64,000 nucleotides of DNA, taken from positions 203,468 to 267,467 of IMG/VR virus record IMGVR_UViG_3300049460_000121; one strand, 5' to 3'. Within the stretch, counting starts at the first letter, position 1. Each line of letters begins with the position of its first letter. The notes below the pieces were generated by a model, which did not search any database, had not been told where the DNA came from, and was given only the letters and a program-made list of their open reading frames with translations. Below, piece by piece: positions 3,191 to 63,525 of this stretch. Source of the stretch: a virus (Duplodnaviria; Heunggongvirae; Uroviricota; Caudoviricetes). The position numbers and the translations under genes were made by a program.

Positions 3191-3232
3191 CTTCAGTGGG
3201 ATTGTTCATGCTGACTATGTATGACTGAAGGA
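3191..3232 (-). promoter_or_regulatory. conserved promoter-like motif, minus orientation (TTCAGTCATACATAGTCAGCATGAACAATCCCACTG)
   Basis: One of about 8 copies in the window. Lies about 55 nt upstream of the minus-strand ATG at 3171. Confidence 0.5.
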
Positions 3233-3247
3233 TTTTTGGATACGTTT

Positions 3248-3268
3248 TATATGAGTTAACTCACCACC
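3248..3268 (+). promoter_or_regulatory. conserved motif TATATGAGTTAACTCACCACC containing the perfect palindrome TGAGTTAACTCA; candidate operator/promoter for 3286..4470
   Basis: The same ATGAGTTAAC...CCACC motif with identical 35-nt spacing to the ATG is found upstream of the helicase gene at 27386. Confidence 0.45.
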
Positions 3269-3285
3269 GTATAAAGGATTGCGTC

Positions 3286-4470
3286 ATGAACGATCTGTTG
3301 CAACAACACATCAGCCAGCACTTCGCCCCTGTAGTCTCGCTGGAAGCCTTCGATCCGATGGAGATGGTTTCCTTCGAAGCAGCAATGCACGAAGACATCG
3401 GTAAGCTTGGTCGCTCCATGGCCATGGCTAGCGCCATCGAACAACTGGACGAGACCACTCTGTCCAACGAAGCCTACCAGGTAGCGATCGAGTCGATCTT
3501 TACCACCGCAGAAGTTGAGATCCCGGTTTCGGCCGTGGTTCCTTCTTTCGAATCCAGCCAGTCCCTGGTTGTGGCTACCGGTTCCGACGCCGAAGCCAAG
3601 ACCTCGAAGAAGAAAGGCATCCTGAAGCGCATCTGGGACTTCATCAAAGGCCTGTGGGCTAAACTGAAGGCCAAGCTCGCAAGCTGGTTCAGCCGGAAGA
3701 AGCAGGCGGTAACCGTTCTGCAACTTCAGCAGACCAAGATGGAACACGCCGCTCAAGCGATCGGTTACAAGTTCGGTGGTGAAGCTGTCGCCATCGGCGG
3801 TGAAGCCGGTGCTGGTGAGCCTGCCAAGCAAGGCGCTATCGGCTACCAGGCTGGTAAAGTGTTGCGTATCGGTATCCTTGGCAAGAACCCAGCCGACGTG
3901 GCCAAAGGTGCCGACCAAGTCGCTGGCGCTTCGCTGAAGCTGACCCACGCAGCAGAACAGGCCTTCGAGAAGTTGCTGACTCTCGATTACACCAAGTTCG
4001 TTTCGGACTACACCAACGAAATCAGCAAGCAGGTGTCCAACCACAAGGAAGTCGTTACCCTGCCATCCGGCGGTCACGCTGACTTCTGGATCGGTCGTAC
4101 CGGTGCTCAAGTGATCGTTCAAGGCGGCGGTCATGACAGCTACGATGTCAAAGACCCGTCCCAGATCCCAGTGCGTGAACTGCTGCATTCTCGTGCTGCA
4201 ATGGTAAACGCGTTGGACGTCAACGCCAAGACCATGGACAAACACCAGTCCAAACTGAAGATGCTCGACGACATCGCTAACGCGGAGTGGAAGAAGATCG
4301 ACAGCTACGGCATGGACGATCAAGAAGCTCTGGGTAAATCCAGCCGCTTTGCCAACTCGTTGCAGATCGGCATCAACCTGGCCACGCGCCTGCTGGCTTG
4401 CCCAGTAGAACGCATCCTGGATCCAGGTATCCACGAAGTGGACGTTTGCCTGGGCGCTCGCGGCGTTTAA
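3286..4470 (+). CDS. hypothetical protein (394 aa) with strongly cationic amphipathic helix (KKKGILKRIWDFIKGLWAKLKAKLASWFSRKKQ)
   Basis: Tracked ORF; AAGGA SD; high GC3. The antisense 392-aa ORF was rejected. A terminator follows directly. Confidence 0.6.
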   Translation: MNDLLQQHISQHFAPVVSLEAFDPMEMVSFEAAMHEDIGKLGRSMAMASAIEQLDETTLSNEAYQVAIESIFTTAEVEIPVSAVVPSFESSQSLVVATGSDAEAKTSKKKGILKRIWDFIKGLWAKLKAKLASWFSRKKQAVTVLQLQQTKMEHAAQAIGYKFGGEAVAIGGEAGAGEPAKQGAIGYQAGKVLRIGILGKNPADVAKGADQVAGASLKLTHAAEQAFEKLLTLDYTKFVSDYTNEISKQVSNHKEVVTLPSGGHADFWIGRTGAQVIVQGGGHDSYDVKDPSQIPVRELLHSRAAMVNALDVNAKTMDKHQSKLKMLDDIANAEWKKIDSYGMDDQEALGKSSRFANSLQIGINLATRLLACPVERILDPGIHEVDVCLGARGV

Positions 4471-4472
4471 GC

Positions 4473-4522
4473 AAAAAAAGAAAGGGCATAGAGCCGGGGC
4501 ACTACGCCCCGGCTCTATGCTG
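4473..4522. terminator. stereotyped convergent terminator T2 (GCAAAAAAAGAAAGGG, then hairpin ATAGAGCCGGGGC-acta-CGCCCCGGCTCTAT, then GCTG)
   Basis: Sits between the plus gene end at 4470 and the minus gene end at 4524. The minus-strand reading ends CCCTTTCTTTTTTTGC. Confidence 0.7.
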
Positions 4523-4523
4523 T

Positions 4524-5255
4524 CTATTCCCTGCTGCGTTGCAGGAACTTAGTGATATCCTGAATCATCATCTCGGCGAGGTTGAATATAGATTCGTGGA
4601 TGCGGATTTGTTTACCCGCCCCAGTCGCCATAGCCGCGTCACTCTCATCACGGGCTTGCATAACCTCAAGCCCTACAGAGCGTACGTACTCGAAGAATGG
4701 ACCAGGCTCACCCAACATGATGCCAGACAGATACTCTTTCTTCAGTATCTCATCCATGGTGGGTATCACGTACGGCTTGATGGCAGGCTCCTCCACCATG
4801 TGTTGCAACACTACCCCATGACCTACTTCCTCCAATATAGGAGGCATCGGACATTCCGAGGTTCTGTTGCGCACCATCTCCCAAGGACGATATTGAGGGA
4901 ATCTCTTATCGATGTCTTGGATGAATGGTGGGTAAGCGTCCAGCAACCACTTCAGGACCTCTTCCAGGCGACGATTACGGAAGTGGGTATAACCTTCCAC
5001 CCATTCCCGTGCTTCAGCGAACGTACAGCCCAACCGCGCCTTCTCAGCGTACATCAAGGTATGGCCGTAGTATTTCACTGCATGCCAGTAGGTTAGCTTG
5101 ATCACCCCATCCACCAGATGCCAGGCAGGGATGAGTGGACGGAGCCCAGGCATCATGCCAGTCTGGAGTTGTTCACGAGTGTAAAGCAAACCTTCCGGGA
5201 TTGGAGTGTCTGGATTACCACCCGGTGCTGCATTACTGTTATTACGCTTAGCCAT
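4524..5255 (-). CDS. hypothetical protein (243 aa)
   Basis: Tracked ORF. Start moved to the second Met, which has a GGAGGT SD 6 nt upstream. I considered ThyX similarity and rejected it because there is no RHR motif. Confidence 0.5.
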   Translation of the reverse strand: MAKRNNSNAAPGGNPDTPIPEGLLYTREQLQTGMMPGLRPLIPAWHLVDGVIKLTYWHAVKYYGHTLMYAEKARLGCTFAEAREWVEGYTHFRNRRLEEVLKWLLDAYPPFIQDIDKRFPQYRPWEMVRNRTSECPMPPILEEVGHGVVLQHMVEEPAIKPYVIPTMDEILKKEYLSGIMLGEPGPFFEYVRSVGLEVMQARDESDAAMATGAGKQIRIHESIFNLAEMMIQDITKFLQRSRE

Positions 5256-5279
5256 CGCGACCTCCACGGTCTCAGGGTG

Positions 5280-5660
5280 TTAGTGTTTGGTCTTACGGGA
5301 GATGTAACCCATCAGCAGATCCAGCGCTTGCCGCCCACCTGCGTAGCGAATTACGTCCCCGGAGAGATTCTTGTACTCCTCAACCGGTGTGGCTTCAGCC
5401 ACCGATGTGAAGTAACGACCCATGTCGGAGCGTTCATCTTCAGTGAAGTCACCCAGCAGGACCAGGTGAACGTCATCGCACTGGTTGACCGAATCATCCA
5501 TCTGGAAGATCCGACCGAAGCACAGCCCCACCTTGATCTCAGCACCGGTGATGGTGCCACCCAACTGCATGCCCTCGAAGGCCTTGATGCCGTCGATGAT
5601 CGGCTTGCCATCCGCCTGGACAACCTTGTGCCGCTTACTCATTGCAATTACATAAAGCAT
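5280..5660 (-). CDS. hypothetical protein (126 aa)
   Basis: Tracked ORF; GAGGAG SD upstream of ATG. Confidence 0.5.
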   Translation of the reverse strand: MLYVIAMSKRHKVVQADGKPIIDGIKAFEGMQLGGTITGAEIKVGLCFGRIFQMDDSVNQCDDVHLVLLGDFTEDERSDMGRYFTSVAEATPVEEYKNLSGDVIRYAGGRQALDLLMGYISRKTKH

Positions 5661-5676
5661 ATTTCGACTCCTCAGT

Positions 5677-5710
5677 CATAAAGCCTAGATGGGGGTATCC
5701 CATCTAGGCA
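5677..5710 (-). terminator. CATAAAG-hairpin variant of the stereotyped terminator (CCTAGATGGG-ggtat-CCCATCTAGG)
   Basis: Sits between minus genes 5715..5927 and 5280..5660. The same CATAAAG-plus-hairpin form recurs at about 23452, 24072 and 38371. Confidence 0.45.
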
Positions 5711-5714
5711 GTCA

Positions 5715-5927
5715 CTAGCCGCAACTATGACCCGACGATGCCGGATCAGGGTAACTCATCACACCGGCGCTGAGCGCCTGCTCGTACGACACGCACCCAG
5801 GTTCTGGTTTGCGATCCTCGTAGACCACACTAACCAGAACACCCACACTGAAAACCGCACCCAGTATCCAGAGGAGGGTGTTGGATTCAGCGACCATGAT
5901 GTCCATGTCCTTCTCACGCTTTACCAT
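5715..5927 (-). CDS. small membrane protein (70 aa; TM LLWILGAVFSVGVLVSVV)
   Basis: Tracked ORF. The start overlaps the upstream gene end (ATGGTAA). Confidence 0.4.
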   Translation of the reverse strand: MVKREKDMDIMVAESNTLLWILGAVFSVGVLVSVVYEDRKPEPGCVSYEQALSAGVMSYPDPASSGHSCG

Positions 5928-6100
5928 CCGAAGACCCTCGTAGCAATCAGATACCCGAGAGTACCGATGGTTGCGATGAAGATCACGATGGGACAGACGC
6001 GCTTGGCCAACTGTTCACGTTGATAAGCCTTGCGACGGCGATTCAGTTTGCCGTAGATGTAGGTGGTATCGATGTCGAGATGAGGGTAACGGTTCTGCAT
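5921..6100 (-). CDS. small membrane protein (59 aa; C-terminal TM)
   Basis: Hand-called. AGGAAG SD. MQNRYPHLDIDTTYIYGKLNRRRKAYQREQLAKRVCPIVIFIATIGTLGYLIATRVFGW. Confidence 0.4.
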   Translation of the reverse strand: MQNRYPHLDIDTTYIYGKLNRRRKAYQREQLAKRVCPIVIFIATIGTLGYLIATRVFGW

Positions 6101-6138
6101 GATGTTTCTTCCTTAGTAAGTTGGCGTCAGAGTTAGGG

Positions 6139-6684
6139 TCAGTGTTGCAGGCCTATTTCTGCTGCCGCATTACGGAACTGACGGGTGAATGAATCCACGG
6201 CGTTGGTTCGTTTGAAGGGTTCGCTGTCAATACGGATCATGGAGAGCTTGTCGAACTTGTACTCCAGCTTCCATTCTTCGGTCACGGCTGTGTTGAATGT
6301 CTGGGCGTCAAGCTTGTTGTCGAACTTGTGGTAGTTCTTACGCAGCGGATCACGCACCACGTAGAACCCACCCACTTCACGGACCACAGAACTGTGATCT
6401 GGTACCTTACGCATCAAGTGGCGGATGCGTGGCAGCATGCGGCGATTCAACAGGAAGGTTAATGAATCTTCCCGTGCTTCAACCGCCAACTCAAAGGCGT
6501 CAATGGCGCCGTGCTTCTTGCAGCTGAACGACTTGGACGACCAGTTGTCTTGGTCGTTGATCACCCATGCGTTCCAGCGTTCAGTTACTTCCGAGTAGCT
6601 CACACCGCACGGAGCGGTGAGTACTTTGGAAACGCCACCTTCAGATACAACTACTTTACGGTTGTCGAGTTTGAATACTGCCAT
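6139..6684 (-). CDS. hypothetical protein (181 aa)
   Basis: Tracked ORF. Start set to the ATG preceded by GGAGGA; the track begins at an upstream GTG. Confidence 0.55.
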   Translation of the reverse strand: MAVFKLDNRKVVVSEGGVSKVLTAPCGVSYSEVTERWNAWVINDQDNWSSKSFSCKKHGAIDAFELAVEAREDSLTFLLNRRMLPRIRHLMRKVPDHSSVVREVGGFYVVRDPLRKNYHKFDNKLDAQTFNTAVTEEWKLEYKFDKLSMIRIDSEPFKRTNAVDSFTRQFRNAAAEIGLQH

Positions 6685-6748
6685 GATGCTGTCCTCCACG
6701 GACGTCCTATTCGGACTAACTTTTCAGTTTGAGTTTATTGCGAGCTGG

Positions 6749-7090
6749 TCAAAGTTGACCGGCTGTAACCTGGGTGCCATGGCAGCGCCAACCTTTACTG
6801 ATCATGAACTCAGAAGGGTTGAAGCGGCGGACGTCGTCAAGCTCTTTACCAGGGAACAGTTCGTCGATGATGGCCTGGTCACCACAGATGGTGCGCAGGT
6901 CCTTCTCGAACGTGACGCGTTCTGGACGGGTCCAGATGTCTTCCAGTTTGCCATAGACGCGGATGTAATCACGGGATCCATCCTTGAAGCGGATGGTGCA
7001 ACTCCCTATGCGTCGATTCAGTTTGGTGGTTTCGCCAGCTGCTTCCAGCTGGAGTTTCACCCCGTGTAATTCCCGTGTTACGGAAGTCAT
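6749..7090 (-). CDS. hypothetical protein (113 aa)
   Basis: Tracked ORF. Start moved to MTSVTR, which has a GAGGAA SD. Confidence 0.5.
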   Translation of the reverse strand: MTSVTRELHGVKLQLEAAGETTKLNRRIGSCTIRFKDGSRDYIRVYGKLEDIWTRPERVTFEKDLRTICGDQAIIDELFPGKELDDVRRFNPSEFMISKGWRCHGTQVTAGQL

Positions 7091-7164
7091 GATTGATTCC
7101 TCAGATGGTGAAGTACGATACACACATTACATCAGTAGCCTGTGTATATTTTTATTGTCAACGT

Positions 7165-7196
7165 CAAGACCACAATGTACGACTCAAAGAAAGTTG
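7165..7196 (-). promoter_or_regulatory. promoter-like motif copy (minus reading TTTGAGTCGTACATTGTGGTCTTGACG)
   Basis: Variant of the conserved motif. Lies in the divergent region between the minus gene at 7090 and the plus array starting at 7232. Confidence 0.4.
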
Positions 7197-7208
7197 AATC
7201 GAAAACAT

Positions 7209-7235
7209 CCTATGACTCAGGTTAACTCCACATGG
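7209..7235. promoter_or_regulatory. GAGTTAAC-containing motif (CCTATGACTCAGGTTAACTCCACATGG) in the divergent region before the paralogue array
   Basis: Shares the GAGTTAAC core with the motifs at 3248 and 27349. Confidence 0.3.
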
Positions 7236-7756
7236 ACACACATATGGACGATAAACAGCAATTAATCGACATGATTGTGTCGAAGAACCTGGAGGTAATC
7301 GAAGCCAACAATGTCGTGCTAGATGCGAGTTCCCTGGTACTCACTCTCCCAAGTGCAGGCGACTATAATGGGGCCAACACAGTTGTAATGGCCTCAGCAG
7401 TGCACGAAAAGGTCGAAGGTGACCAGGTCTTCTATTACAACCGGTTAACGGAAGTGTTATTCCGGGAAGCGTTAGGCAATCCAACGATATTGATTCCCGT
7501 GGATTGTCAGACGCCGCAACAGTTAAAGACTTACTTCGCCACTGAGTTCGGCGTGTTTCTAGATCTTGAGCACGTTAAGTCAGCACAAAGGCAACAATCC
7601 CAGTGGGTATTGAAGTTCTGGGAGTGGTCCTATACGTGGTTGGGGACATTCTCCCTTGACGCTGAGGTAGATCCAGATAACCCAATCCTGACGGACCTGA
7701 AAGACGTTCTCACCAAAACCCGTCTGGATGGCCTCTACTATCCTGATAACGGGTGA
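7232..7756 (+). CDS. paralogue family A member (174 aa, N-domain type)
   Basis: Family-A N-terminal motif: L..LI...N, then a T-rich strand, then Y.NRL. First gene of the plus-strand array; no clear SD. Confidence 0.5.
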   Translation: MDTHMDDKQQLIDMIVSKNLEVIEANNVVLDASSLVLTLPSAGDYNGANTVVMASAVHEKVEGDQVFYYNRLTEVLFREALGNPTILIPVDCQTPQQLKTYFATEFGVFLDLEHVKSAQRQQSQWVLKFWEWSYTWLGTFSLDAEVDPDNPILTDLKDVLTKTRLDGLYYPDNG

Positions 7757-8247
7757 GTGCCGTGGATACAACGTACGATTACACCAAGCCTGAACTCGCT
7801 CTTATGTTTGACGTCCTCAGACATTCGAATGATAAGTTCCCGATAGATCCAACCGAGCTTTCGTGGAGCGAACCAACCGCAGTATACCCTCCGACCCACA
7901 AAGGACGTGATACGTCCATTGAGGCGACGATTGTGAACAGCGATCGTTACAGAGGGAAAGGGACCTACTACTACCTGCGTGTACCGCTGAGGCAGTTGAC
8001 CCCACGATGCGGCATGATTCCACGAATCGTGATCGGGAAGCGTCCGAGTCTCTATGAGAATTTGACGTACATCAACGCCGCCCTATCTCTCAACCTTGAG
8101 CAGGTATCGGTGGACGACATCGACCTTAATTCGTTGTCGGTGAACGCATCGGACTGGACCCTGGTTCGGATCTTTGCAAAGGCTACTTCGCGGGTCTATT
8201 CGGACTCTGTACGACTCTACCTTAAACGGGACAATAGCCTCGTTTAA
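7753..8247 (+). CDS. paralogue family A member (164 aa)
   Basis: GTG start overlapping the upstream stop (GTGA). Weak family-A pattern. Confidence 0.45.
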   Translation: MSAVDTTYDYTKPELALMFDVLRHSNDKFPIDPTELSWSEPTAVYPPTHKGRDTSIEATIVNSDRYRGKGTYYYLRVPLRQLTPRCGMIPRIVIGKRPSLYENLTYINAALSLNLEQVSVDDIDLNSLSVNASDWTLVRIFAKATSRVYSDSVRLYLKRDNSLV

Positions 8248-8291
8248 GCTCGATCCTATGTAGAACACCCGCCCTACTGAAGGAACCCGCG

Positions 8292-8819
8292 ATGGCGAAG
8301 CACATCAGCGACTTTAGCAAGTTGCCGTTGGAGATCGTTTTCGATCTTATCAATGAGCAAAACGGTTCGGCGCTCAACAACACAGAGGTGGTGTTGGGTC
8401 AACCGACCGTAGCCACCGGCAGCGGTGGTTATAACACTGACATTTTAGTCACTGCCCGGCCGAATGGTCGTTATGAAGGTTCTGTTAGCCTCGGCTATAA
8501 CCGTCTGGATGTGGTAGGTTTCCTGTTTGGCGATACCATCACCCTTACCCTGGGTGATGCAACGAACGTTTCGGACCTGATCCCTGAGATCAATACGAAG
8601 CTCAGAGCCAACCTCACTACGGATGACTTCGTAGACGCGCCTATCGGGACGTGGACGGGAACACCAGGCGAGACTAAGCAGCTCACCATCCAGATGAAGC
8701 CTACCAGCTTAGTCTTTATCGGCGAGTTGGCGCTGACAGTGCATGTCGACGATATCCCGTTGGGTGATGTCATTGTCATCAGCGCCCTGCCGGGTCTGAT
8801 TTACCAACCACCTGCCTGA
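8292..8819 (+). CDS. paralogue family A member (175 aa)
   Basis: GAAGGAAC SD. The N-domain LPLEIVFDLINEQN...NTDILVTA...GYNRLDV is clearly shared with its neighbours. Confidence 0.6.
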   Translation: MAKHISDFSKLPLEIVFDLINEQNGSALNNTEVVLGQPTVATGSGGYNTDILVTARPNGRYEGSVSLGYNRLDVVGFLFGDTITLTLGDATNVSDLIPEINTKLRANLTTDDFVDAPIGTWTGTPGETKQLTIQMKPTSLVFIGELALTVHVDDIPLGDVIVISALPGLIYQPPA

Positions 8820-8887
8820 ACAGCGGGATTCTATGAGTTCCCCCAAAGGTAACGCTCAGCAACCCTTTTATAGAAGAGAGACGCCCA

Positions 8888-9436
8888 ATGGCTGACAATC
8901 TTACACTGCCTCCCAAAGAGGTAATTTGTGCGCTGATCAACCGTACTAACACTGCGGTAGGTGCTGCACTGACTCCAGCTCTGGTAACGTTCGGTCTGCC
9001 GAGCCAATCCAGCGGTGGTACTTTCAACACCGACCTCACCGTGACCGCGATTGACGGTTCAGGCTATGTCGGGATTGTACCGATCAACTACAACCGTGTG
9101 CACCTGCAAACGGAAATTGCTGATCCGTACGCCGCCAGTGGCGTTGGTCGTAACCTCGACTTCAACATCGGCAGCGCGATCAAGATCGCTGACATGGTTC
9201 CGCAGATCAACGCACGGTTCGGTATCAACCTGACCTCTGCCGACTTCATCGACGGCGACCTGCCTACCTTCGTTGGTGGGGCGAACGAGACTCATCCCGT
9301 CCAGGTCATCGCCAACGCCGACTCCCTCTGCTACCGCGGCAGCTTCACCTTCACCCTGATGGCTGAAGACATCGAGCTGAGCACCGTGATTGTCGAGACG
9401 GTCATGAACGGCCTGACCTACGCTCCACCGGTCTAA
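8888..9436 (+). CDS. paralogue family A member (182 aa)
   Basis: N-domain PPKEVICALINRTN...NTDLTVTA...GYVG...NYNRVHL. Confidence 0.6.
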   Translation: MADNLTLPPKEVICALINRTNTAVGAALTPALVTFGLPSQSSGGTFNTDLTVTAIDGSGYVGIVPINYNRVHLQTEIADPYAASGVGRNLDFNIGSAIKIADMVPQINARFGINLTSADFIDGDLPTFVGGANETHPVQVIANADSLCYRGSFTFTLMAEDIELSTVIVETVMNGLTYAPPV

Positions 9437-9453
9437 TCATTCAGTACTGCACA

Positions 9454-9484
9454 GATGAGGGGTGGGTTCGCCCCACCCCTCATC
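9454..9484 (+). other. intergenic stem-loop within the plus-strand array (GATGAGGGGTGGG-ttcg-CCCACCCCTCATC)
   Basis: Perfect 13-bp stem with no U-tract. Possibly an RNA processing or stability element. Confidence 0.4.
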
Positions 9485-9511
9485 TAGTCTGTCCGGCCCA
9501 GGAGACTCCCT

Positions 9512-10300
9512 ATGTTCCTTTTACCAGACGGGTCGAAGCAGTCACTGATCGACGCCGTGAACGATGTCAATACGTTCCCAGTTGCATTCACCGCAGCCGA
9601 CCTTTATTTCGGCAAAGTCAAGATCGAAAGCAACGGCCACGTCAGTGTGCCTGCTGTCACTATGTACAACAGCGAGTTCGAGGGTTACATCCGCCTGAAC
9701 TATCAGCGGCTTGACCTCGGCAAAGTGTACGGGACCATCAAGCCCAAGATTCGCCGGGTAGGTTATCCTACGTTGTACCGTCTACTGCCAATCATCAACG
9801 AAACTCTCGGTCTCAGTTTGACTGAAGAGGACGTGGTGGACATTTCCATCACATGGCTGAACGATAACGAGCAGATCAACATCCCGGTTATCGCCAAAGC
9901 GAACTCCCTCGGTTTCGAAGGACAGTTCATGCTGGAGTACACTCGAGTTCGTCCTGAGTTGGCAACACTGGCCATCAAGACCCTCAACGTACTGAAGCAT
10001 CCTATCGAGCCAGCGCTGGGTAAGAAATCCCTAGCGATGATGACGTGGGGTATCGACTTCACCGATGACATGGGTGACTTTGCGCTCAACGCAGGTAGCT
10101 GGCGGTTCCAAGATCGGGTTGAGGCTCGTATGGCGGAGTTGGGATTCCCTAACTGGCCACGGCCACCGTACTGGACGCTGACGGCCGTCCCCACATCGCA
10201 AGTCCCATTGGCCAACCAAGAGTTTGAGTATGTGATCGTCCAAAAGGACATCGTTCTCGCAGACCACATTGGCGATGGCTACATCCACTTCAATCGTTAG
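9512..10300 (+). CDS. paralogue family A member (262 aa; C-terminal YIHFNR)
   Basis: AGGAG SD. N-domain plus the C-terminal HYN-type motif. Confidence 0.6.
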   Translation: MFLLPDGSKQSLIDAVNDVNTFPVAFTAADLYFGKVKIESNGHVSVPAVTMYNSEFEGYIRLNYQRLDLGKVYGTIKPKIRRVGYPTLYRLLPIINETLGLSLTEEDVVDISITWLNDNEQINIPVIAKANSLGFEGQFMLEYTRVRPELATLAIKTLNVLKHPIEPALGKKSLAMMTWGIDFTDDMGDFALNAGSWRFQDRVEARMAELGFPNWPRPPYWTLTAVPTSQVPLANQEFEYVIVQKDIVLADHIGDGYIHFNR

Positions 10301-10315
10301 TGAGAGGCTCCATCC

Positions 10316-11143
10316 ATGGCCTTGTATCCAGATCCGCTCGATTCCATCTTGGCGTCGATCAAATCGCTTAATAGCGGGACAGAGCTTGGGCGGGACGAAT
10401 ACATCTTCGACGCGCCTGTAGCCATCCCTCCAGAAGCCGGTGGTATCAACACCAGCCTGAGGATCTCGCAGAACGGCCCTACAAGCCCGTATGCGGGCGA
10501 AGTGACTGTAAAGCATATCCGACTCAACCTCGATGACTTGCGCATCCTGGTGCCTTCCGACATCCGCGTCAGTGGCGTCACCACCACGCTCGAGTTTGCC
10601 ACCCAGTTGAACCGTATCTACGGGACCAACATCGGCGCGTCTGACATCGAGACCACTGGGATGGCTCTGACGGATGGTGTCGGCACCATCACCCTGACGG
10701 CTAAGCCAGCGTCACGGGCATGGATTGGCACTGTAACCTTCAACGTTACTCCCGGCCGTTTCCAGTTGGCCGATTACCTGACCGATACTACCCTCGACGG
10801 TCTGCAATATCCAGACCCGTATGAAGGTAAAGCGTTCGGTAACGCTTATGCTTACTGGCGCAACTTCTCCGATCAATTCACCGCCCTCGAAACGATCACT
10901 GTCGAGTCTCCGGACTGGACTGCCATCAAAGATGTACTGGTTGCGGTCACTACCGACGCCTGGGTACTCACTGGCAGCTCACGGTTCTCGCTGGAAGGCG
11001 CTGAGGTGCTGTATGTAGGCGCGGTAGCCGGTTACCCTGAGCTGAACCAGACTTACGACAAAGCGGTGGTCCTGAAGCTCGGTGCAGCCTGCCTGGGTTA
11101 CTCGGGTCGGATGTTCCTGCACTATAACGAACCGGACGAGTGA
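10316..11143 (+). CDS. paralogue family A member (275 aa; C-terminal FLHYNEPDE)
   Basis: Family motifs at both termini. Confidence 0.6.
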   Translation: MALYPDPLDSILASIKSLNSGTELGRDEYIFDAPVAIPPEAGGINTSLRISQNGPTSPYAGEVTVKHIRLNLDDLRILVPSDIRVSGVTTTLEFATQLNRIYGTNIGASDIETTGMALTDGVGTITLTAKPASRAWIGTVTFNVTPGRFQLADYLTDTTLDGLQYPDPYEGKAFGNAYAYWRNFSDQFTALETITVESPDWTAIKDVLVAVTTDAWVLTGSSRFSLEGAEVLYVGAVAGYPELNQTYDKAVVLKLGAACLGYSGRMFLHYNEPDE

Positions 11144-11151
11144 GGTGACCG

Positions 11152-55172: not shown

Positions 55173-55189
55173 TACTTACTTCCTCAGTA

Positions 55190-55215: not shown

Positions 55216-55219
55216 GTAA

Positions 55220-56518: not shown

Positions 56519-56520
56519 GA

Positions 56521-57153
56521 TTAACCCCCAGACGACGAAGAGTGTGAAGCACCACGGGCGCTGGAACTACCGCTAGAGCTACCGCCCCAAATACCTGTGG
56601 ACTTGGTACTCAGTGTGGCAGCACGTAGCGCCGGAGAGCCTGGAGGCGTCGCGCTGTAGATGTTGTTGCGGTTACTGCTCATGACTGAACCAACGTAGCC
56701 GCTCGAATACGTGTTGCGGTTCTTCTTCTCGTCTTCACGGGCATAGTAGCCACTCGCCGCAGGCGGATTCTGCCGGGTATAGTTACTTGCACCACCGCTG
56801 GACAGCATATTGCCCAAGATAGCACCACCCGCCATGGCACCGACGATAGGCCAGACACTGTTCTGTACCGAATCAGGCTTCTCTGCATCCTCACGGACAA
56901 CATGTAGTTGTTTCTGACCGTTATCGTCGACGGAGTAGTACGCGTCTTTTACAGACGGGTCTTTCTCTTGTAGTTTGGCGAGGTTGTCTTTGAGGTCGGT
57001 ATCCTCTTTGGCTACCTGTGCCATGGTTTCAGCCTTCGCCGTATCTTCGACGTAAGCATCCATGTCTTTACCGCTAACCTCCTGCTCGCAGCCAGTGAGG
57101 CTCAACACCGATGTAGCGATCACCGCAGCTGCGGTAAGGTCACGCATGTTCAT
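56521..57153 (-). CDS. lipoprotein (210 aa; signal peptide with lipobox LTGC; Ser/Gly-rich C-terminal tail)
   Basis: MNMRDLTAAAVIATSVLSLTGCEQ...; low-complexity C-terminus GGSSSGSSSARGASHSSSSGG. Confidence 0.55.
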   Translation of the reverse strand: MNMRDLTAAAVIATSVLSLTGCEQEVSGKDMDAYVEDTAKAETMAQVAKEDTDLKDNLAKLQEKDPSVKDAYYSVDDNGQKQLHVVREDAEKPDSVQNSVWPIVGAMAGGAILGNMLSSGGASNYTRQNPPAASGYYAREDEKKNRNTYSSGYVGSVMSSNRNNIYSATPPGSPALRAATLSTKSTGIWGGSSSGSSSARGASHSSSSGG

Positions 57154-57159
57154 CTATCA

Positions 57160-57627
57160 TTACTCTTTGGGTGGGGTATCAAGTAAGGCGAAAGTCTCAC
57201 GGTTGCCTTTCGCGAGGATCTCATCCAGTTTAGGAGCAGCATCTTTAAACACCAACGCGGCCATGTCGTCCATGCCGTATTGTTCAAAGGTGTATTCAGG
57301 GGTGAGGAACAACCGCTCCACAAACTCAGCCGTGAAATCCTTTACCTGTTGTACACGCTTTCGGGTGAACAACTCGTCTTTCAGACGGTCGTCAGGGATG
57401 GCGTTCTTGAAGATCAGGGTGAGGTAATCCGAATGGATGTTCTCATCGAGAAACTTCACCACGATCGGATGACAACCCTTGACCTTGGTGTTCACGGTAT
57501 ACAGGGTGGTTTTACCCCAGAGGTTCTTACCCGCGCTGTTCGGGTCGAAAGCCGCATAACCGAGAACAGCATCGATATCTACGGGAGGTTCTTCATCAAA
57601 CCCCACCACCAGCATTAGAATGGCCAT
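57160..57627 (-). CDS. hypothetical protein (155 aa)
   Basis: Start at MAILMLVVGF with a perfect AGGAGG SD. Confidence 0.5.
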   Translation of the reverse strand: MAILMLVVGFDEEPPVDIDAVLGYAAFDPNSAGKNLWGKTTLYTVNTKVKGCHPIVVKFLDENIHSDYLTLIFKNAIPDDRLKDELFTRKRVQQVKDFTAEFVERLFLTPEYTFEQYGMDDMAALVFKDAAPKLDEILAKGNRETFALLDTPPKE

Positions 57628-58369
57628 GTTGCCTCCTGACACGATAAGGTTGCCATTGAGGGTTGATCATGTACCGACGTTGCATCAGGTTGGGCTCCAT
57701 CTTGATCATGGCTGGATCCAAGGAACCTTCAGGGAATCGGGTCTTCACAGAACCGCCCCACACCTCTAACGGAATAGGGGTCGACTTAGCCCGACGGAAG
57801 AACCAGATGATCATCCGACCACCAGTCCACTCGGGAGGGAAGATCAAGTGACACACCACCATCCCGCCGAAGATACCGCGGTAGGCGGTGAAGGTACTCG
57901 CCGTCCCATCAGGATCGAGGTCGATATCAAAGTCCCGATCTGTGGCACCTTTATAGCTGCTGCGGAACATGTCCTGCATCTTGCGGGTGATGTCGTTACC
58001 TGGACCGACTTCTATTTCCATCAAGACGTGTTTACCGATGAACGACCCCATCTCGGCAACCATGTCATGGCCACCGACCTTGAAGTCCTCATCAGTCCAC
58101 AAATACCCGGTTCTATCCGAATGATGGATGTGGAAATCACAGTCACCGAAACCCATGGCCTGTTCGACGGTGGTTTCGATGGCCTTGTTCAGATCGATCG
58201 GCTCATCGGTGATCCAGTAACGGACCGTCAAGAACTTTTCAGTGAGATCCTCGACCAGTTCAGCGAGAGGGTCACCATCGATCGTGATGTGTTCACTTTC
58301 ACCACACGACCTATCGATCATGCCCGACAAGAGGTAGAACCGCTCGTCGTCTTGTTGTTCTAACGCCAC
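57596..58369 (-). CDS. hypothetical protein (257 aa)
   Basis: Tracked ORF; its 3' end overlaps the next gene by about 30 nt. Confidence 0.5.
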   Translation of the reverse strand: MALEQQDDERFYLLSGMIDRSCGESEHITIDGDPLAELVEDLTEKFLTVRYWITDEPIDLNKAIETTVEQAMGFGDCDFHIHHSDRTGYLWTDEDFKVGGHDMVAEMGSFIGKHVLMEIEVGPGNDITRKMQDMFRSSYKGATDRDFDIDLDPDGTASTFTAYRGIFGGMVVCHLIFPPEWTGGRMIIWFFRRAKSTPIPLEVWGGSVKTRFPEGSLDPAMIKMEPNLMQRRYMINPQWQPYRVRRQHGHSNAGGGV

Positions 58370-58385
58370 GTTGACCTCCTCGGTC

Positions 58386-59198
58386 TTAATTGAATTTGAA
58401 GCTCTGTGCTTCGAGCTTGATCAACACCCGTTGTCCGGACTCACGGTTCCACAGCACGAACTCTTCCAGTACAGGTTTGGAGGATTCGTACATGATCTCC
58501 CAATGGGCGGTGAGGCCCAGACCGCTGCGCACCGTGTCGAGGCTGTAGGCACTTACGCCAGTCGGCACGTCTGGCATGTTGATAGCAGAGACCTTGACTT
58601 TATCCCCAGCTTCCAGTTCCTTCTCGTAGAGGCAAGGGACGCAGGAGTGTGGGATGTCATCAGGGACACTGTCTATAAATGCAAGGATGTTGCTGGGGAT
58701 ACCGGCGTCGATGACTTCGACTGCCCAGTTCTCAGACCAGCCGATGCGACGGTCTTGTTTGCGACGATGTAGGCGGATGTGATCAGCCAGCAATTGCCGA
58801 CCCCACATCAGGCCAAGGTGTTCCAGTAACGCTTCGGTTGTAGACGGTAGTGTGGCGATGTTCGCGATGGAGTTCGCGAAGTTGCTGATGTTCTTGCGGA
58901 TCTTCAGTCGATTCGCTTCGGGTGCCTTCGGTTGATCGAAAGCCGTAGACGGTGCATCATCAGGCACGCAGTCGGACATGCCGATCACGCCAAACCCTTC
59001 GAAGTACACGTACCAGGATTCCTTCCAGCCAATGCGACTGTCAGGACCGGTGTATTTAAGGCGTAGGTCTTCAGCCTTGAATTCGAACACACTGGTTGCG
59101 TTGTTGAGATGACTAACCAGTGCCGAAACGGTGGGGTCTAATTCCACCAGGGTTTCCATTGCTGCGTCTAGGCTACCGCGATGTTCACGGAATTTCAT
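58386..59198 (-). CDS. hypothetical protein (270 aa)
   Basis: Tracked ORF. Confidence 0.5.
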   Translation of the reverse strand: MKFREHRGSLDAAMETLVELDPTVSALVSHLNNATSVFEFKAEDLRLKYTGPDSRIGWKESWYVYFEGFGVIGMSDCVPDDAPSTAFDQPKAPEANRLKIRKNISNFANSIANIATLPSTTEALLEHLGLMWGRQLLADHIRLHRRKQDRRIGWSENWAVEVIDAGIPSNILAFIDSVPDDIPHSCVPCLYEKELEAGDKVKVSAINMPDVPTGVSAYSLDTVRSGLGLTAHWEIMYESSKPVLEEFVLWNRESGQRVLIKLEAQSFKFN

Positions 59199-59261
59199 GG
59201 GCGTATCCCTCTGTATAGGTGACGTGAGTGTCCAGACGATAATGTATTGCCCATTTCGGTT

Positions 59262-59310
59262 TAAAAGAAAACGGAGGAGCTGGCGCCCGAAGGCGCCGTT
59301 CCGTGTTACT
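59262..59310 (-). terminator. stereotyped terminator (TTAAAAGAAAACGG, hairpin GGCGCC-cgaa-GGCGCC with extended stem, then GTTCCGTGTTACTTG)
   Basis: Abuts the stop of 59306..60742. Confidence 0.55.
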
Positions 59311-60742
59311 TGGTGTCAGTACTGACCAACGGCGTAGCAGCGCCGAAGATAGTAGTGGCACGCGAACCGTTCCAACGCTCAGCTTCGATCAGTTGGATCA
59401 GCTGAGGGTTGTTCTTCAGAGCGTTTGCCTTGGCAACGATGGCAGAGGCTTCAGCAATACCTTTGGCGGTAATACCTTCGGATTCAGCCAGCATCTGGTT
59501 CTTCTTGGCGTCGGCTTCACCTTGCATCTTCGCGACGTAGGCCTTGGCATCAGCCAGCGCCTGTTGCTCACGATTCTTCGCTGTATCCACCGCTACGAGT
59601 GAACGCACCTTCTCTTCAATGGTCGCTTCGTACGCATCGGAGAAGTTGATGTCTTCCACCTGGACAGAAGTCACATTGACGAATGCTGGTACGCCGGCAC
59701 GGATTCGCTTGGTGAGCGCCATGACGAACGACGTACGGTCACTGGCCAATGTGGCCGCCTCGAATTGACCGAAGGCATTCTCGACTTCACTTGGGGTGAT
59801 CTTGCGGATGAACCGATCAGTCACGCCCTCAAGAGACAGTGCCGTACGGTACATATCGCCCACCAACCCAGGTTGGACAGTCCAGGTCACCGATACCCGC
59901 ATGGTAGCCGGTTGGGTATCCTTGGAATACGCCGAGAGGCTCTGGAAGCTATCCGTCCAGGTCTGGAGGCTGACGCGCTTCACTACGTGGAAGACAGGCA
60001 GCTTGATGTGGATGCCAGGCTCTTCCACCCCCACCATCTTACCGCCGGCGAGCACTATCCCGCGCTCGGTTTCGTTGATGGTGTAAATCGAGGACGCGAC
60101 CGTGCAAAGCAGGATGATCGCAATGATGGCAGCCACGACCGACTTGATCGGGTTACGCTTGATCTTCTCGAGGAAGGAGTACTTGTAGCCGGGTGTTGGT
60201 TCGAAGTTCATTGTGTCGCTTTCCTTACTGTTTGGGGTTACCACCTCGGGTTCCTCCGAGATGGGTGCTTCTTCCACCACCGCTTGTTCCGTCAGTGGGT
60301 ACTGGGGTTCAGGCGGAGGCGGAGGAGGTGCTGGCGGTATTGCGGCTACTGAAACTGGCCGCAATGGCCGTGGATCTGGTTCTGCCGGAATTTCGATCGG
60401 CTTTAGGTAGGCTGAAGTAGCCCTGCCTGGTAACCCATGAATGTGGTGTAGATCACCGAACATCATGAGTACACCACCAGACTGCATGAAGTCTGAGTAG
60501 TCCAGGTCAGGGTCCAGCCGGTTGAAGTGCTGGCTGATAGGTGGTGCTACCCACAACCGTGCACCTGATGAACGTCCGATACGGTTGTTGAACGATCTGG
60601 ACAGGTATTCTGGCCAGTTGCTCTTTTCACCGAAGTCGCTGGGGTATGTGCTCAGGACAGCATCTTCTTCTACCGTCGTCCACCATACGACCAGGGTGTT
60701 TTGTTTATCCCGCCAGCGTTGCAGCTGTTGCGAATACTCCAT
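59306..60742 (-). CDS. SPFH/band-7 (HflK/HflC-like) domain membrane protein with an about 190-aa N-terminal domain and a Pro-rich linker (478 aa)
   Basis: TM helix, then INETERGIVLAGGKMVGVEEPGIHIKLPVFHVVKRV, which matches the HflK/C core (ERGVV.RFGK...PGLHF..PF). The N-terminal half is unrelated, and the linker is PPAPPPPPPEP. Confidence 0.6.
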   Translation of the reverse strand: MEYSQQLQRWRDKQNTLVVWWTTVEEDAVLSTYPSDFGEKSNWPEYLSRSFNNRIGRSSGARLWVAPPISQHFNRLDPDLDYSDFMQSGGVLMMFGDLHHIHGLPGRATSAYLKPIEIPAEPDPRPLRPVSVAAIPPAPPPPPPEPQYPLTEQAVVEEAPISEEPEVVTPNSKESDTMNFEPTPGYKYSFLEKIKRNPIKSVVAAIIAIILLCTVASSIYTINETERGIVLAGGKMVGVEEPGIHIKLPVFHVVKRVSLQTWTDSFQSLSAYSKDTQPATMRVSVTWTVQPGLVGDMYRTALSLEGVTDRFIRKITPSEVENAFGQFEAATLASDRTSFVMALTKRIRAGVPAFVNVTSVQVEDINFSDAYEATIEEKVRSLVAVDTAKNREQQALADAKAYVAKMQGEADAKKNQMLAESEGITAKGIAEASAIVAKANALKNNPQLIQLIEAERWNGSRATTIFGAATPLVSTDTK

Positions 60743-60743
60743 C

Positions 60744-61199
60744 TCAGGACTTCTTCTCGAAGATGCGTTTGATGTGGTCGGTTTTGGTACCGACCATGTT
60801 GGCGCACAGCTTCGGCATCTGCCGTCCGACTGACTGCGGGTAAGTGTAACTATACCCGATGTCCTTCTTCACCGAATCCTCGGCCAGGATGTCGACGATG
60901 TTGGTATTGAAGCGCACAGCCAGAGCGTTACCGGCATACTTATCGTCGTTGGTGATGTCCTTCGCGATCTCGCTGGCGATGGCCGACAGGCGCGACATCT
61001 CGTCAACGCCATCCATGTACATGGTGGTGATTTTAACTGCCTGGGCGACAAAGTACTTGCAGGACAGTGGGGTGATACGGAGGCTTTCGTTAGGCAGATC
61101 GGAATCGACCTTGACGAACTTACCGCGCGGGTCTTCAGCCGCTACAGCCAGACTCGAAGCCAAACAGCTACCGAGGATAATAGCTTTAATGATGTTCAT
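60744..61199 (-). CDS. secreted/periplasmic protein (151 aa; cleavable signal peptide)
   Basis: N-terminus MNIIKAIILGSCLASSLAVAAED. Translationally coupled to the SPFH gene. Confidence 0.5.
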   Translation of the reverse strand: MNIIKAIILGSCLASSLAVAAEDPRGKFVKVDSDLPNESLRITPLSCKYFVAQAVKITTMYMDGVDEMSRLSAIASEIAKDITNDDKYAGNALAVRFNTNIVDILAEDSVKKDIGYSYTYPQSVGRQMPKLCANMVGTKTDHIKRIFEKKS

Positions 61200-61238
61200 A
61201 CTTGCGCTCTCGCATAGAGTTTAAGATTTACCACCGCA

Positions 61239-61715
61239 TCAGCAATTGCCGATACGTCCCAAAGCTTTGTGGACAGGGTCAGCAGATGCTTCGATGACTT
61301 CGAAGATGTCAACAGGTTCCAGAAGACCCACCGCTTGCGTTGACTTACGCAAACCGCTTTCGTCTTCGAGTTCTGTGTTGGCCATCAAACCCATCTTCGA
61401 CATCTTGAAGCTCATGATCGGACCGAGCATTTCTTTACTGTCGCGACGACGAACGCATTGACCGAGCTGAGGAATCCAAGGTTGGACATCCAAGCGCTCG
61501 ATCACCTTCTGGATATCGCTGACGTACTGGTTCTCATCACCCAGTACAGCGTCCTCGTTGATACTGCGCTCAAGACGAGCGATGATCTCGGAGTTCATAC
61601 TGCGGTGATGGGTACGAGCTACTTGAGCGATAAGCTCACGCATGCCGTCTGGGAGACGGACTACGAACTTGTCGGCGGTACGGCTGGAATAGACAGCTTG
61701 TTTGATCGGGCGCAT
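61239..61715 (-). CDS. Arc/MetJ-type ribbon-helix-helix DNA-binding regulator with C-terminal extension (158 aa)
   Basis: [35 protein letters not shown] matches the Arc-family RHH signature (RS.NSEI). Confidence 0.6.
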
Positions 61716-61732
61716 TGGTTGTCCTCCACGGA

Positions 61733-62077
61733 CTAGATATAAAGTTCGGTGTATTCTTCGGTGGTGCAGACCGGAATGGTCCAGGTGAAGTCTTTAAGGG
61801 TAACGGAGATCGTCGCTGCTCTGAGGCCGATTAACGCTTGCGGCATTTGTTTCTTCAGTGCATCGACAGCATGCTGGCTCAACTTCGGGTCAATGAAGAA
61901 GCCATGACTGCGATTGAGGTGCGGTTGCTTACGAATGGTTTCGGCCACGTAGGTAGCCCAATCGCGAGCACGGCGTTTCTGGTTGAAGTCTGTGACTGCG
62001 TTGTAACGCAGTACGAAGGCGGCTACGAGACCAACCAGCACCAGAACCAATATTGCGGAGATGACTGGATCAGACAT
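61733..62077 (-). CDS. small membrane protein (114 aa; N-terminal TM)
   Basis: Start at [23 protein letters not shown], preceded by AAGGAG. Confidence 0.45.
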
Positions 62078-62471
62078 CAGCTTTCTCCTTACGGTAGACG
62101 TTGTGCCACTGGTGCAAGGACTTGTAGTTGTTGTCCCGCATCTCTGTGCCGTTCCAGTCCTTGCCTTCGTGCTCGAAGTCACGATAGTGGCGCCAGATGA
62201 AGTTGGCAATGGCACGACTGCGGAAGCGACCTTCGGTGCAGTGAACCACGATGTTGTCGCCCGCTTCGTGAGCACGTTCCACGAACTCGCAGATACGCTG
62301 GCAAACGATATCAGGGATACGAGCATCGGGTTCCACGGTTACGTCGTAGACTTCCTTATGGTCAATACCCAGACGAGCGTAGTTGCTGTGACCAAAGCCC
62401 ACTCGCAAAACGCGAGCAGGTTCTGTCAACGCGACGGCGGCTTCCACCGACATGAATTGTACTGTTGGCAT
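62070..62471 (-). CDS. protein-tyrosine/dual-specificity phosphatase-like protein (133 aa; CX5R motif VHCTEGRFRS)
   Basis: PTP signature HC.{5}R(S/T). Confidence 0.55.
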   Translation of the reverse strand: MPTVQFMSVEAAVALTEPARVLRVGFGHSNYARLGIDHKEVYDVTVEPDARIPDIVCQRICEFVERAHEAGDNIVVHCTEGRFRSRAIANFIWRHYRDFEHEGKDWNGTEMRDNNYKSLHQWHNVYRKEKADV

Positions 62472-62480
62472 ATTGCTTCC

Positions 62481-63458
62481 TTAGTAATGAACGTCTACTA
62501 CAGAGACGATGGTGTCTTCACTCAGCGCTTCCAAAGCGTCCAAGCCTTTGTGAAGATGTTCTTCAGTGGCCATGAGGTCATCGGTGTCGTACACCACACC
62601 ACCCACGATCCAGGCGGACAGGGTTTTAGCCTTCAATGGACCGAGTCGTTCCAGCAACGCGTCACTGAACCGGTGTTCTTCCATGGAGAAGACGCCTAAG
62701 TCAGGAAACCCGTGGTCAGCCCGCAGCGAATCGATGAACTTGCGGAAACTCAGGTACACGTCAAGCCAGCGACCTTTAATGTACCCGTCGATAGCCTCGG
62801 GCCCAACCTGATCCATTAACCCTGGGTACATCTGGTGGAAGTATTCACGGAAGGTAGGAACAACGATACCCTTCTCAGCCAATGCTTTACGCATGTTGAT
62901 CGCAGCTTCCTCAACCGCAGGAATCTCAGCACCCATCCGCTCCCAATCCACTTCACGAACCGGTAGGGACGACCAAGTACCAGGCTCGTTATCGGAACAT
63001 GGAATACCCGCAGCCAGAGCAGCCAGTGTCAGCTTGGGCATACCGCCGACATGGGCATCCAAGGTATCGGGTTCCTTGGCCTTCAGGTAAGTGTTCCAGC
63101 GACCACCAGGTACCCACCAGTCCCACAGCCCTTTACGATGAACCGTATACAGGCAGTAGTCATGATCCTTCTTGTAGGTCAGGACATAACTGGCTGGACC
63201 AAAGTCAACGTGCCAGGGTGGAGTGGCATCAGCTTCCGGCATGACGATGAACGAATCGAGGAAGTCTTTACCGACCCGACTCTCCACGCTCTGGATCATG
63301 TCCATGATTTGGTGGAGCATGATGCCAGCCGCGGTACTGGCTGGGAACCGATGACAAAGGATCAGGTCGCATGGACCATCTTCTTCGCCGTATTTACCGA
63401 GTAACATCATCAGTGACGGACGGTCTTCTGGACCGTAGACCATAATTCCCCTATGCAT
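62481..63458 (-). CDS. hypothetical protein (325 aa)
   Basis: Start at MHRGIMVYG, preceded by AGGAG. Confidence 0.5.
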   Translation of the reverse strand: MHRGIMVYGPEDRPSLMMLLGKYGEEDGPCDLILCHRFPASTAAGIMLHQIMDMIQSVESRVGKDFLDSFIVMPEADATPPWHVDFGPASYVLTYKKDHDYCLYTVHRKGLWDWWVPGGRWNTYLKAKEPDTLDAHVGGMPKLTLAALAAGIPCSDNEPGTWSSLPVREVDWERMGAEIPAVEEAAINMRKALAEKGIVVPTFREYFHQMYPGLMDQVGPEAIDGYIKGRWLDVYLSFRKFIDSLRADHGFPDLGVFSMEEHRFSDALLERLGPLKAKTLSAWIVGGVVYDTDDLMATEEHLHKGLDALEALSEDTIVSVVDVHY

Positions 63459-63460
63459 AG

Positions 63461-63525
63461 AGGTGCTCCTGGGTGAGGGTGTTGTCTGTATAATAATGTA
63501 GCATTGTAAAGTTTTACTCGACGAA
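63461..63525 (-). promoter_or_regulatory. degenerate copy of the promoter-like motif (minus reading ...GCTACATTATTATACAGACAACACCCTCACCCAGGAG)
   Basis: Shares the ACACCCTCA C-rich tail with the copy at 38321. Immediately downstream of the terminator at 63532. Confidence 0.35.

Follow-up and report, generated by a model that had tools for sequence, protein, structure and literature searches.

A conserved motif recurs on the minus strand of the 64,000-nt stretch analyzed here (positions 203,468 to 267,467 of the IMG/VR record IMGVR_UViG_3300049460_000121, a virus of the Caudoviricetes; hereafter, the window), and we propose that it is probably an early promoter, recognized by the multisubunit virion RNA polymerase (vRNAP) of the phage itself. 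Several observations carry this proposal: the motif is present in excess over chance, follows strict rules of strand and position, and is conserved among relatives, and genes for multisubunit RNA polymerases (RNAPs) occur in the genome or its lineage. From these we infer promoter activity, a start at the invariant G of the motif, vRNAP as the enzyme, and early timing. The motif was assigned to the vRNAP early-promoter class because its geometry, the lengths of the 5' untranslated regions (5'UTRs) and the density of copies match those published for such promoters. The one cultured relative, the Pseudomonas jumbo phage pPa_SNUABM_DT01 (DT01), carries the same motif family.

In the proposed mechanism, vRNAP, packaged in the virion and injected with the DNA, would bind the conserved element AGTCATACATAGT, which would lie at about -19 to -7 if the invariant G is taken as +1, while an A/T tract at about -34 to -25 would probably strengthen binding. 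Transcription would start at that G, 7 nt past the last conserved T and in a CATG or CTTG context, yielding leaders of 27-37 nt with a Shine-Dalgarno (SD) sequence. A strong hairpin terminator would usually insulate each unit from the preceding one, so that terminator-promoter cassettes would front operons of mostly small genes of unknown function, and a sub-class with the core TACATTATC would drive, among others, the operons of the non-virion RNA polymerase (nvRNAP).

Copies, consensus and context of the motif

An earlier note, made from the sequence of the window alone, described a repeated motif at eight sites, and site-by-site reading found it on the minus strand at all eight. Allowing up to three mismatches, AGTCATACATAGTNNNCATGAACA had three matches in the window against 0.00 expected. 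Seven of the eight sites were recovered (21-62 bits) by a 48-nt matrix trained solely on copies from other genomes, all on the minus strand, intergenic and in the same direction as the next gene; in 100 Markov-2 shuffles of the window the top score was 18.5, and matches above 12 bits averaged 0.03 per shuffle. The eighth site (63482-63508), already described as degenerate, fell below the matrix threshold, and a ninth, absent from the original list, lies at 59224-59260. These last two are treated as one sub-class (class B) because they share a TACATTAT core. The matrix scan gave no copy for the plus-strand helicase, tail-fibre and DUF7941 genes of the window.

Nineteen distinct copies from the window and its relatives yielded the consensus A.T.AAA..t.tT.CAGTCaTACAT.gT-N3-CaTGAa, with TACAT and the final G invariant (19/19). 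In every one of them this G stood exactly 7 nt past the last conserved T (six bases between: NNN plus CA/T-T), and class B sites, both in the source genome (segments L053/L054) and in its relatives L029 and L031, keep it as well. A C-rich block, often AACAATCCCACTGA, follows 3' of the motif in many copies. Counted from the consensus, the AGTCATACATAGT core is 69% A+T, against ~47% A+T for the genome (window GC ~53%). Class A copies have the form AGTCATACATAGT-N3-CATGAAC and precede operons of small open reading frames (ORFs). Class B copies, of the form (A/C)(A/C)TACATTATC-N4-NG, precede nvRNAP, PhuZ and larger-gene operons; their members are 59224-59260 and 63482-63521 in the window (both minus strand), ~6990-7020 in L054 (minus strand), and DT01 positions 23166, 124378, 136838 and 150911.

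The nine window copies, with the short site numbers used below, and the hairpin terminators found upstream of six of them are as follows.

3195-3242, minus strand (3203): class A copy, TATCCAAAAATCC-TTCAGTCATACATAGT-CAG-CATGAACAATCCCACT, 62.0 bits; predicted +1 G 3207; 5'UTR 36 nt; heads a unit of three small ORFs (2971-3171, 2810-2974, 2664-2813) closed by the terminator near 2627-2660
7153-7200, minus strand (7161): class A copy in a divergent intergenic region, TTGAGTCGTACATTGT-GGT-CTTGACG, 28.6 bits; predicted +1 G 7165; 5'UTR 75 nt to an SD-preceded ATG at 7090; minus-strand operon 7090 down to 4524
31703-31750, minus strand (31711): class A copy, CAGTTAACTTTAT-TTCAGTCATACATAAT-GGT-CATGCAAC, 40.9 bits; predicted +1 G 31715; 5'UTR 33 nt; SD GAGGAGG; genes 31682 down to 29988
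31769-31791, minus strand: terminator hairpin GGCTAGCGGGATTCCCGCTAGCC, then TATGTCCCTTTCTTTTTT; directly upstream of the 31703-31750 copy
38322-38369, minus strand (38330): class A copy, TGTAGTCGTACATTGT-AAG-CATGAACACCCTCA, 26.2 bits; predicted +1 G 38334; 5'UTR 32 nt; ~6.5-kb operon from 38302 down to 31801
38382-38404, minus strand: terminator hairpin, then CTTTATGTCCCTT; upstream of the 38322-38369 copy
40159-40206, minus strand (40167): diverged class A copy, TATGGTCATACATAAT-TCA-CATGGAG, 21.3 bits; predicted +1 G 40171; 5'UTR 37 nt; genes 40134 down to 38412
40207-40241, minus strand: palindromic, apparently bidirectional terminator hairpin, CATAGACGATGCGG...CCGCATCGTCTATG; upstream of the 40159-40206 copy
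40939-40986, minus strand (40947): class A copy near-identical to 3195-3242, 56.9 bits; predicted +1 G 40951; 94-nt 5'UTR with a conserved hairpin at 40877-40916, then ATG at 40857
45254-45301, minus strand (45262): diverged copy, TACAATCACACATTAC-ACA-CTTGAATCCACCCACT, 32.8 bits; predicted +1 G 45266; 5'UTR 27 nt; genes 45239 down to 40991
45318-45337, minus strand: terminator hairpin GAGGTGGGGAAACCCACCTC with a T-rich tail; upstream of the 45254-45301 copy
59224-59260, minus strand (59224): class B variant, GGGCAATACATTATCGTCTGG; predicted +1 G 59232 or 59233; ahead of gene 58386-59198
59282-59297, minus strand: terminator hairpin GGCGCCTTCGGGCGCC, then ...CCGTTTTCTTTT; upstream of the 59224-59260 class B copy
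63482-63521, minus strand (63482): class B variant, TTTACAATGCTACATTAT-TATAC-AG; predicted +1 G 63486; 5'UTR 28 nt; ahead of gene 62481-63458
63546-63573, minus strand: terminator hairpin GCAGTGAGTGGGGAAACCCACTCACTGC, then TATTCTTTTT; upstream of the 63482 copy

A strong hairpin terminator stands directly ahead of six of the nine copies (31711, 38330, 40167, 45262, 63482 and 59224); the others lie in divergent intergenic regions (3203 and 7161) or directly after a stop codon (40947). The earlier statement that the motif immediately follows terminators is thus right for the first five of these sites, and also for 59224. Seven of the nine copies have 27-37 nt between the invariant G and an SD-preceded start codon, and the remaining two have 75 and 94 nt; the earlier placement of the motif 50-60 nt upstream of the ATG suits most copies. 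At the 63482 copy, the predicted ATG at 63458 is also the start in the public gene call, and its TACATTAT-N5-AG form recurs at DT01 position 23166.

More generally, the window terminators form strong, GC-rich hairpins with a 3' side that continues into (C)T(T)TATG(C/T)(C/T), and a palindrome CATAG...CTATG often renders them bidirectional. Such terminators were seen on the plus strand at 2627-2660, 22428-22470 and 27290-27325, on the minus strand at 38382-38404, and on both strands at 4486-4520, 29943-29985, 31769-31795, 40207-40241 and 45318-45340. Their 3' end resembles the conserved phiKZ terminator motif ...YTTATKYYGT (PMC10914365). The hairpin in the 94-nt leader of the 40947 copy (40877-40916, minus strand; CCACACCTGGCC-ATTTC-GGCTGGGTGTGG, within a structure of -31.5 kcal/mol) is kept in the relative L004, with differences confined to the loop and adjacent bases (GGCTG/GGTCG). 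By analogy with the premature terminators of phiKZ leaders, it may be a 5'UTR attenuator.

The source genome, its relatives and DT01

Megablast of 20 kb of the window found no nucleotide match among GenBank phages. At the protein level, the DnaB-like helicase (1062-2603) is 35% identical to that of DT01, with weaker matches to other phiKZ-like jumbo phages. Logan contig SRR26075508_1575 (267,330 bp) is identical to the window over the 12.6 kb compared, and a JGI contig (3300047320 Ga0495672_0000042; 267,427 bp) differs from the window sequence by 2 bases. At the left edge of the window the Logan contig has a PhiKZ_MCP-family capsid gene (L053 7132-9285, window position 1 being L053 8940) whose 5' end forms the first ~346 nt of the window. 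The left flank also holds a 406-aa gene and, 3.2-4.9 kb outside the window, a gene for a 547-aa protein homologous to DT01 gp025 (nvRNAP beta-N; 38% identity, E = 2.6e-121). The annotation of gp025 is that of an nvRNAP beta/beta' subunit resembling phiKZ gp123.

Close relatives in IMG/VR comprise a 264-kb uncultivated virus genome (UViG) and contigs of 112 and 74.7 kb, with 73-87% nucleotide and 94-95% DnaB identity. A vRNAP beta homolog, 48% identical to DT01 gp093, is present in L039 (the 264-kb UViG) and L001. A search for related loci with vRNAP beta of DT01 itself returned close DT01 relatives only, none of the window lineage. DT01 carries both virion and non-virion RNAP sets (PMC8541153). 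With nvRNAP beta-N in the source contig, vRNAP beta in its relatives and both annotated in DT01, the source is an uncultivated 267-kb phiKZ-like jumbo phage of the two-polymerase group. Within the window no RNAP gene was found, as the earlier note had stated; no evidence of a phage sigma factor or a MotA/AsiA-type factor was seen, and our explanation needs none. Only eight homologs were shared between DT01 and the window proteins (tblastn), which made it impossible to annotate the window from DT01 and limited the use of DT01 to RNAP markers and the motif.

Further copies of the motif lie in the flanks, in relatives and in DT01. Four copies lie in the 10-kb flanks (L087 4018, 4590 and 8552; L054 7009) and, like the nine in the window, all are intergenic and co-directional with genes. 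One of the L087 copies heads an operon with an NAD-dependent DNA ligase, and the class B flank copy sits between the terminator of the capsid gene and the operon containing nvRNAP beta-N. The CAATACATTATC variant seen at 59224-59260 also heads the nvRNAP beta-N operon in L053, L054, L029, L031 and DT01. Orthologous intergenic sites of relatives carry the motif as well: the 3195-3242 and 7153-7200 copies are both kept in L003, L029 and L031. In more diverged alignments the core stays and the flanks change; against L004, the 40167 copy retains GTC.TACAT.AT...C.TG and the 40939-40986 copy keeps its core, with the flanks diverged in both. Copies at non-orthologous sites were found in further metagenomic phages (IMG/VR L037, L045 and L046; RCUJ01 and Ga0247818 contigs), the last two groups supplied by a metagenome motif scan that had the source contig outside its range.

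DT01 provided the strongest comparison, its proteins being only 35-48% identical to those of the window lineage. Scanning the complete DT01 genome with a matrix derived from that lineage alone gave 21 sites with scores above 10 bits (0.07 expected). The pattern TACAT[ATG][AG]T-N5-TG occurred 19 times, where base frequencies predict ~3 for the two strands together. Without exception, the sites of both sets lie on the plus strand. The DT01 consensus, gATTCGAAtaTTTTTCAgcaATACATrrTagcaGTGA, matches the tATCCAAAaatccTTCAGTCATACATAGTcagCATGAA of the window position by position. Annotated DT01 genes follow the sites at a distance of 25-90 nt; among them are the operons gp024-gp025, gp147-gp148 and gp160-gp161, which together hold all four annotated nvRNAP subunits of the phage. 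Individual DT01 sites include 100755, 121329, 124378 (PhuZ) and 150911 (nvRNAP). PhuZ (gp128) and many small hypothetical genes are also preceded by sites, and none of the vRNAP genes (gp082, gp092-093 and gp168) is.

Candidate enzymes and alternative readings

Each RNAP-encoding jumbo phage has one bioinformatically detectable early-operon motif of ~10-13 nt, centred near -10, which was confirmed as the vRNAP promoter wherever tested, and the nvRNAP subunit genes of phiKZ and AR9 are early, vRNAP-transcribed genes (PMC7598289). The AR9 early promoter reads AAATATATATTAT-6N-G+1 (PMC5312081, PMC7598289), and the starts of phiKZ and phiR1-37 likewise lie 6 nt past the element (PMC5312081). The phiKZ early motif consists of an extended -10 box with a T-rich tract upstream of -19, and its 5'UTRs measure 31-40 nt (PMC8244752). 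Published early-promoter counts are 28-32 for phiKZ and 41 for AR9; with nine copies in 64 kb, the genome studied here would hold roughly 35.

The window motif resembles these early promoters of phiKZ, AR9 and phiR1-37 in being a single conserved motif, present in tens per genome and placed ahead of early and nvRNAP operons, with its element near -10 and an invariant G, the predicted start, six bases on, an upstream A/T-rich tract, short 5'UTRs and frequent intrinsic terminators (PMC5312081, PMC7598289, PMC8244752, PMC10914365). The element is highly conserved, A/T-biased, over-represented and upstream of operons. In DT01 it stands ahead of the nvRNAP operons and PhuZ and not ahead of the vRNAP genes, and in this genome it stands ahead of the nvRNAP beta-N operon. 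Its sequence, however, is unrelated to the published elements and less AT-rich: unlike them, the TACAT core has an invariant C, with AGTCA on its 5' side and AGT on its 3' side. It also adds a conserved start region CATGAA, the block AACAATCCCACTGA in many copies, and two sub-classes.

Several points weigh against the vRNAP assignment. The core, with an invariant C and frequently a G, is only moderately AT-rich, in contrast to the nearly pure A/T of the published vRNAP elements, and positions -12 to -7 read CATAGT, CATAAT or CATTGT, keeping A-11 and T-7 of the sigma-70 -10 hexamer. Some relatives are so alike over whole intergenic regions that conservation there is uninformative. Classes A and B could have different reading enzymes or timing. 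vRNAP beta is known from close relatives, and when the L039 vRNAP fragment was used as a protein query, none of the many jumbo-phage homologs retrieved was clearly from the 267-kb source contig. Finally, the start site, timing and enzyme are argued by analogy for a phage that is uncultivated.

Among the alternatives, we consider it improbable that the host sigma-70 holoenzyme reads CATAGT or CATAAT as a -10-like element, perhaps assisted by a phage factor in the manner of T4 early and middle transcription. If the G is +1, the hexamer from -12 to -7 is C-A-T-W-R-T, in which A-11 and T-7 hardly vary, and the upstream A/T tract could serve as an UP element. Yet the motif lacks the sigma-70 arrangement of a -35 TTGACA and a -10 TATAAT 16-18 nt apart, has no conserved -35 box or TG extension, and its C at -12 is invariant, a position at which sigma-70 prefers T. 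A sigma-70 consensus scan of three regions (1-10 kb, 30-50 kb and 50-64 kb) called none of the copies, in agreement with the earlier judgement that the core is not sigma-70-like, and sigma-70-like sites fell below the counts of dinucleotide shuffles in all three (5 vs 7.2 at 1-10000, 5 vs 13.8 at 30000-49999, and 4 vs 9.2 at 50000-64000). Moreover, phiKZ-type RNAPs are encoded in the lineage, and phiKZ-type infection is independent of host RNAP (PMC7598289).

We give similarly little credence to a middle-class promoter read by nvRNAP, the enzyme made after infection. The CATG or GTG at the presumed start approximates the phiKZ late promoter, T-3 A T G+1, which nvRNAP reads (PMC7598289), the likeness being a (C/T)ATG with G at the presumed start, and some downstream genes are of replication type, such as the DNA ligase operon in L087. 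The phiKZ late promoter, however, has no conserved upstream element, whereas a 13-nt upstream element dominates the window motif; published middle and late promoters are too weakly conserved for bioinformatic detection (PMC7598289), and the motif scores tens of bits. In addition, the motif heads every nvRNAP subunit operon of DT01 and the nvRNAP beta-N operon of this genome. Since nvRNAP cannot first express its own subunits, dependence on nvRNAP alone is impossible for the motif.

It is very unlikely that the repeat is no core promoter and instead serves a phage DNA-binding regulator as its operator, or that it is a recombination or shuffling cassette that merely travels with terminators. The comparison that favors a cassette is with the promoter-early-stem-loop elements (PeSLs) of T4-like phages, in which a terminator stem-loop directly followed by an early promoter is repeated between small genes of unknown function, with variable gene content beside conserved cassettes (PMC2839356, PMC4122927). 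The genes directly downstream of the conserved 38330 cassette are replaced in L004, and the 3203 and 40947 copies share 38 near-identical bases. The PeSLs, however, are sigma-70 early promoters of T4-type genomes, whereas the window promoter is not sigma-70-like and belongs to a phiKZ-type jumbo phage; the terminator-promoter composite is present at six of nine copies. Three features argue for a promoter: the strict co-orientation, the fixed 27-37 nt that separate the motif from SD-preceded starts, and the spacing of the invariant G, which is promoter-like. Because PeSLs themselves hold functional promoters, shuffling would supplement the promoter role, not take its place. No operator-like inverted-repeat symmetry was apparent by eye in the aligned copies, with no dedicated DNA scan run.

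A T7-type promoter for a single-subunit phage RNAP encoded elsewhere in the genome is almost certainly the wrong reading, and for DT01 it is effectively refuted: the motif superficially shares with the T7 group a long contiguous conserved block reaching into the start region, a G at the presumed +1 and the terminator-promoter-gene layout, but it has no meaningful sequence similarity to T7-group promoters, the genome is phiKZ-type with a different enzyme family, and no single-subunit RNAP gene was found, the best tblastn match to T7 RNAP having E = 1.9 across the window, complete DT01 and 224 kb of relatives (the other ~185 kb of the source genome lay outside this search). The resemblance to the T7 promoter core that the earlier note had pointed out, ACGACTCA in one copy, lies on the opposite, wrong strand and occurs once against 3.0 expected by chance. 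Of the phage-specific transcription that the same note had put forward, the promoter-like, non-sigma-70 character stands and the T7 analogy does not, the context pointing to a multisubunit phiKZ-type enzyme.

Three other readings were rejected. An RNA element found no support: 16 copies gave no consensus secondary structure, and there was no Rfam or tRNA match. A TTCAGT...ACTGAA inverted repeat around some copies is lost in others. The motif could also be read on the plus strand, where its reverse complement has TATG twice; most copies lie between co-directional minus-strand genes, and this reading was rejected because only antisense RNA would result at most of them.

Cassettes, implications and other features of the window

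The 38322-38369 terminator-promoter cassette is near-identical in L004, together with the first few codons, and the genes downstream differ: the two minus-strand genes at 36728-38302, directly downstream of the 38330 copy, have no homolog in the 264-kb relative (vs L004 1006-1866), from which gene 44272-44802 is also missing. This gene replacement, a single case, hints at gene exchange bounded by cassettes. A wider proposition, which we regard as conceivable but rather unlikely, is that the TACAT box, CATGAA and AACAATCCCACTGA form a clade-wide code read by the sigma-less vRNAP and that the cassettes are portable recombination modules for early genes. If so, DT01-like cultured and uncultivated jumbo phages would have this code in common, and the cassettes would be the jumbo-phage counterpart of the T4 PeSLs.

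On the reading favored here, the motif adds a new sequence to an established type of signal and implies no new mechanism. It offers a usable promoter model for an environmental jumbo-phage clade whose one cultured relative, DT01, is barely annotated; the word "promoter" is absent from the paper on the DT01 genome. The model allows early operons to be delimited and temporal classes to be proposed for dozens of genes of unknown function, and it offers defined templates for studying promoter recognition by virion RNAPs. To our knowledge, no sigma-like factor is known for virion RNAPs. Growth of DT01 on P. aeruginosa makes direct tests of the predicted start sites possible.

A second type of element was seen on the plus strand. 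TATGAGTTAAC occurs at 3250-3260 and 27350-27360, preceding the start codons at 3286 and 27386 (helicase) by 26-36 nt, and a variant, TATGACTCAGGTTAAC, lies at ~7203-7218 ahead of the gene at 7232. These elements could be TATG-type promoters, similar to phiKZ late promoters and read by nvRNAP; the support is weak because the two exact copies compare with 0.45 expected.

The plus strand also holds a tandem array of ~15 diverged paralogs (7232-22420; ~15 kb; 23-37% mutual identity), with two related genes on the minus strand at 22475-24064. Eight members of the array fall within L053 (window 7232-12603) and are recorded as Pfam DUF7941. Between divergent genes, 741 bp (24065-24805) lack a convincing ORF and contain several hairpin-plus-TTATGCTGC units; the region had no tRNA or Rfam match and may encode small RNAs or stacked terminators. 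A 66-aa ORF at 63735-63935 matched no record in the look-up. Genes in the motif-driven minus-strand operons include 55220-56518, 59306-60742, 61239-61715 and 6139-6699, and the products listed for these operon genes are a glutathionylspermidine-synthase-like protein (PHROG 6215, Pfam GSP_synth), a Band_7 protein (PF01145; also PHROG 200 'lipoprotein'), an Arc-family DNA-binding protein and a weak AP2-domain protein.

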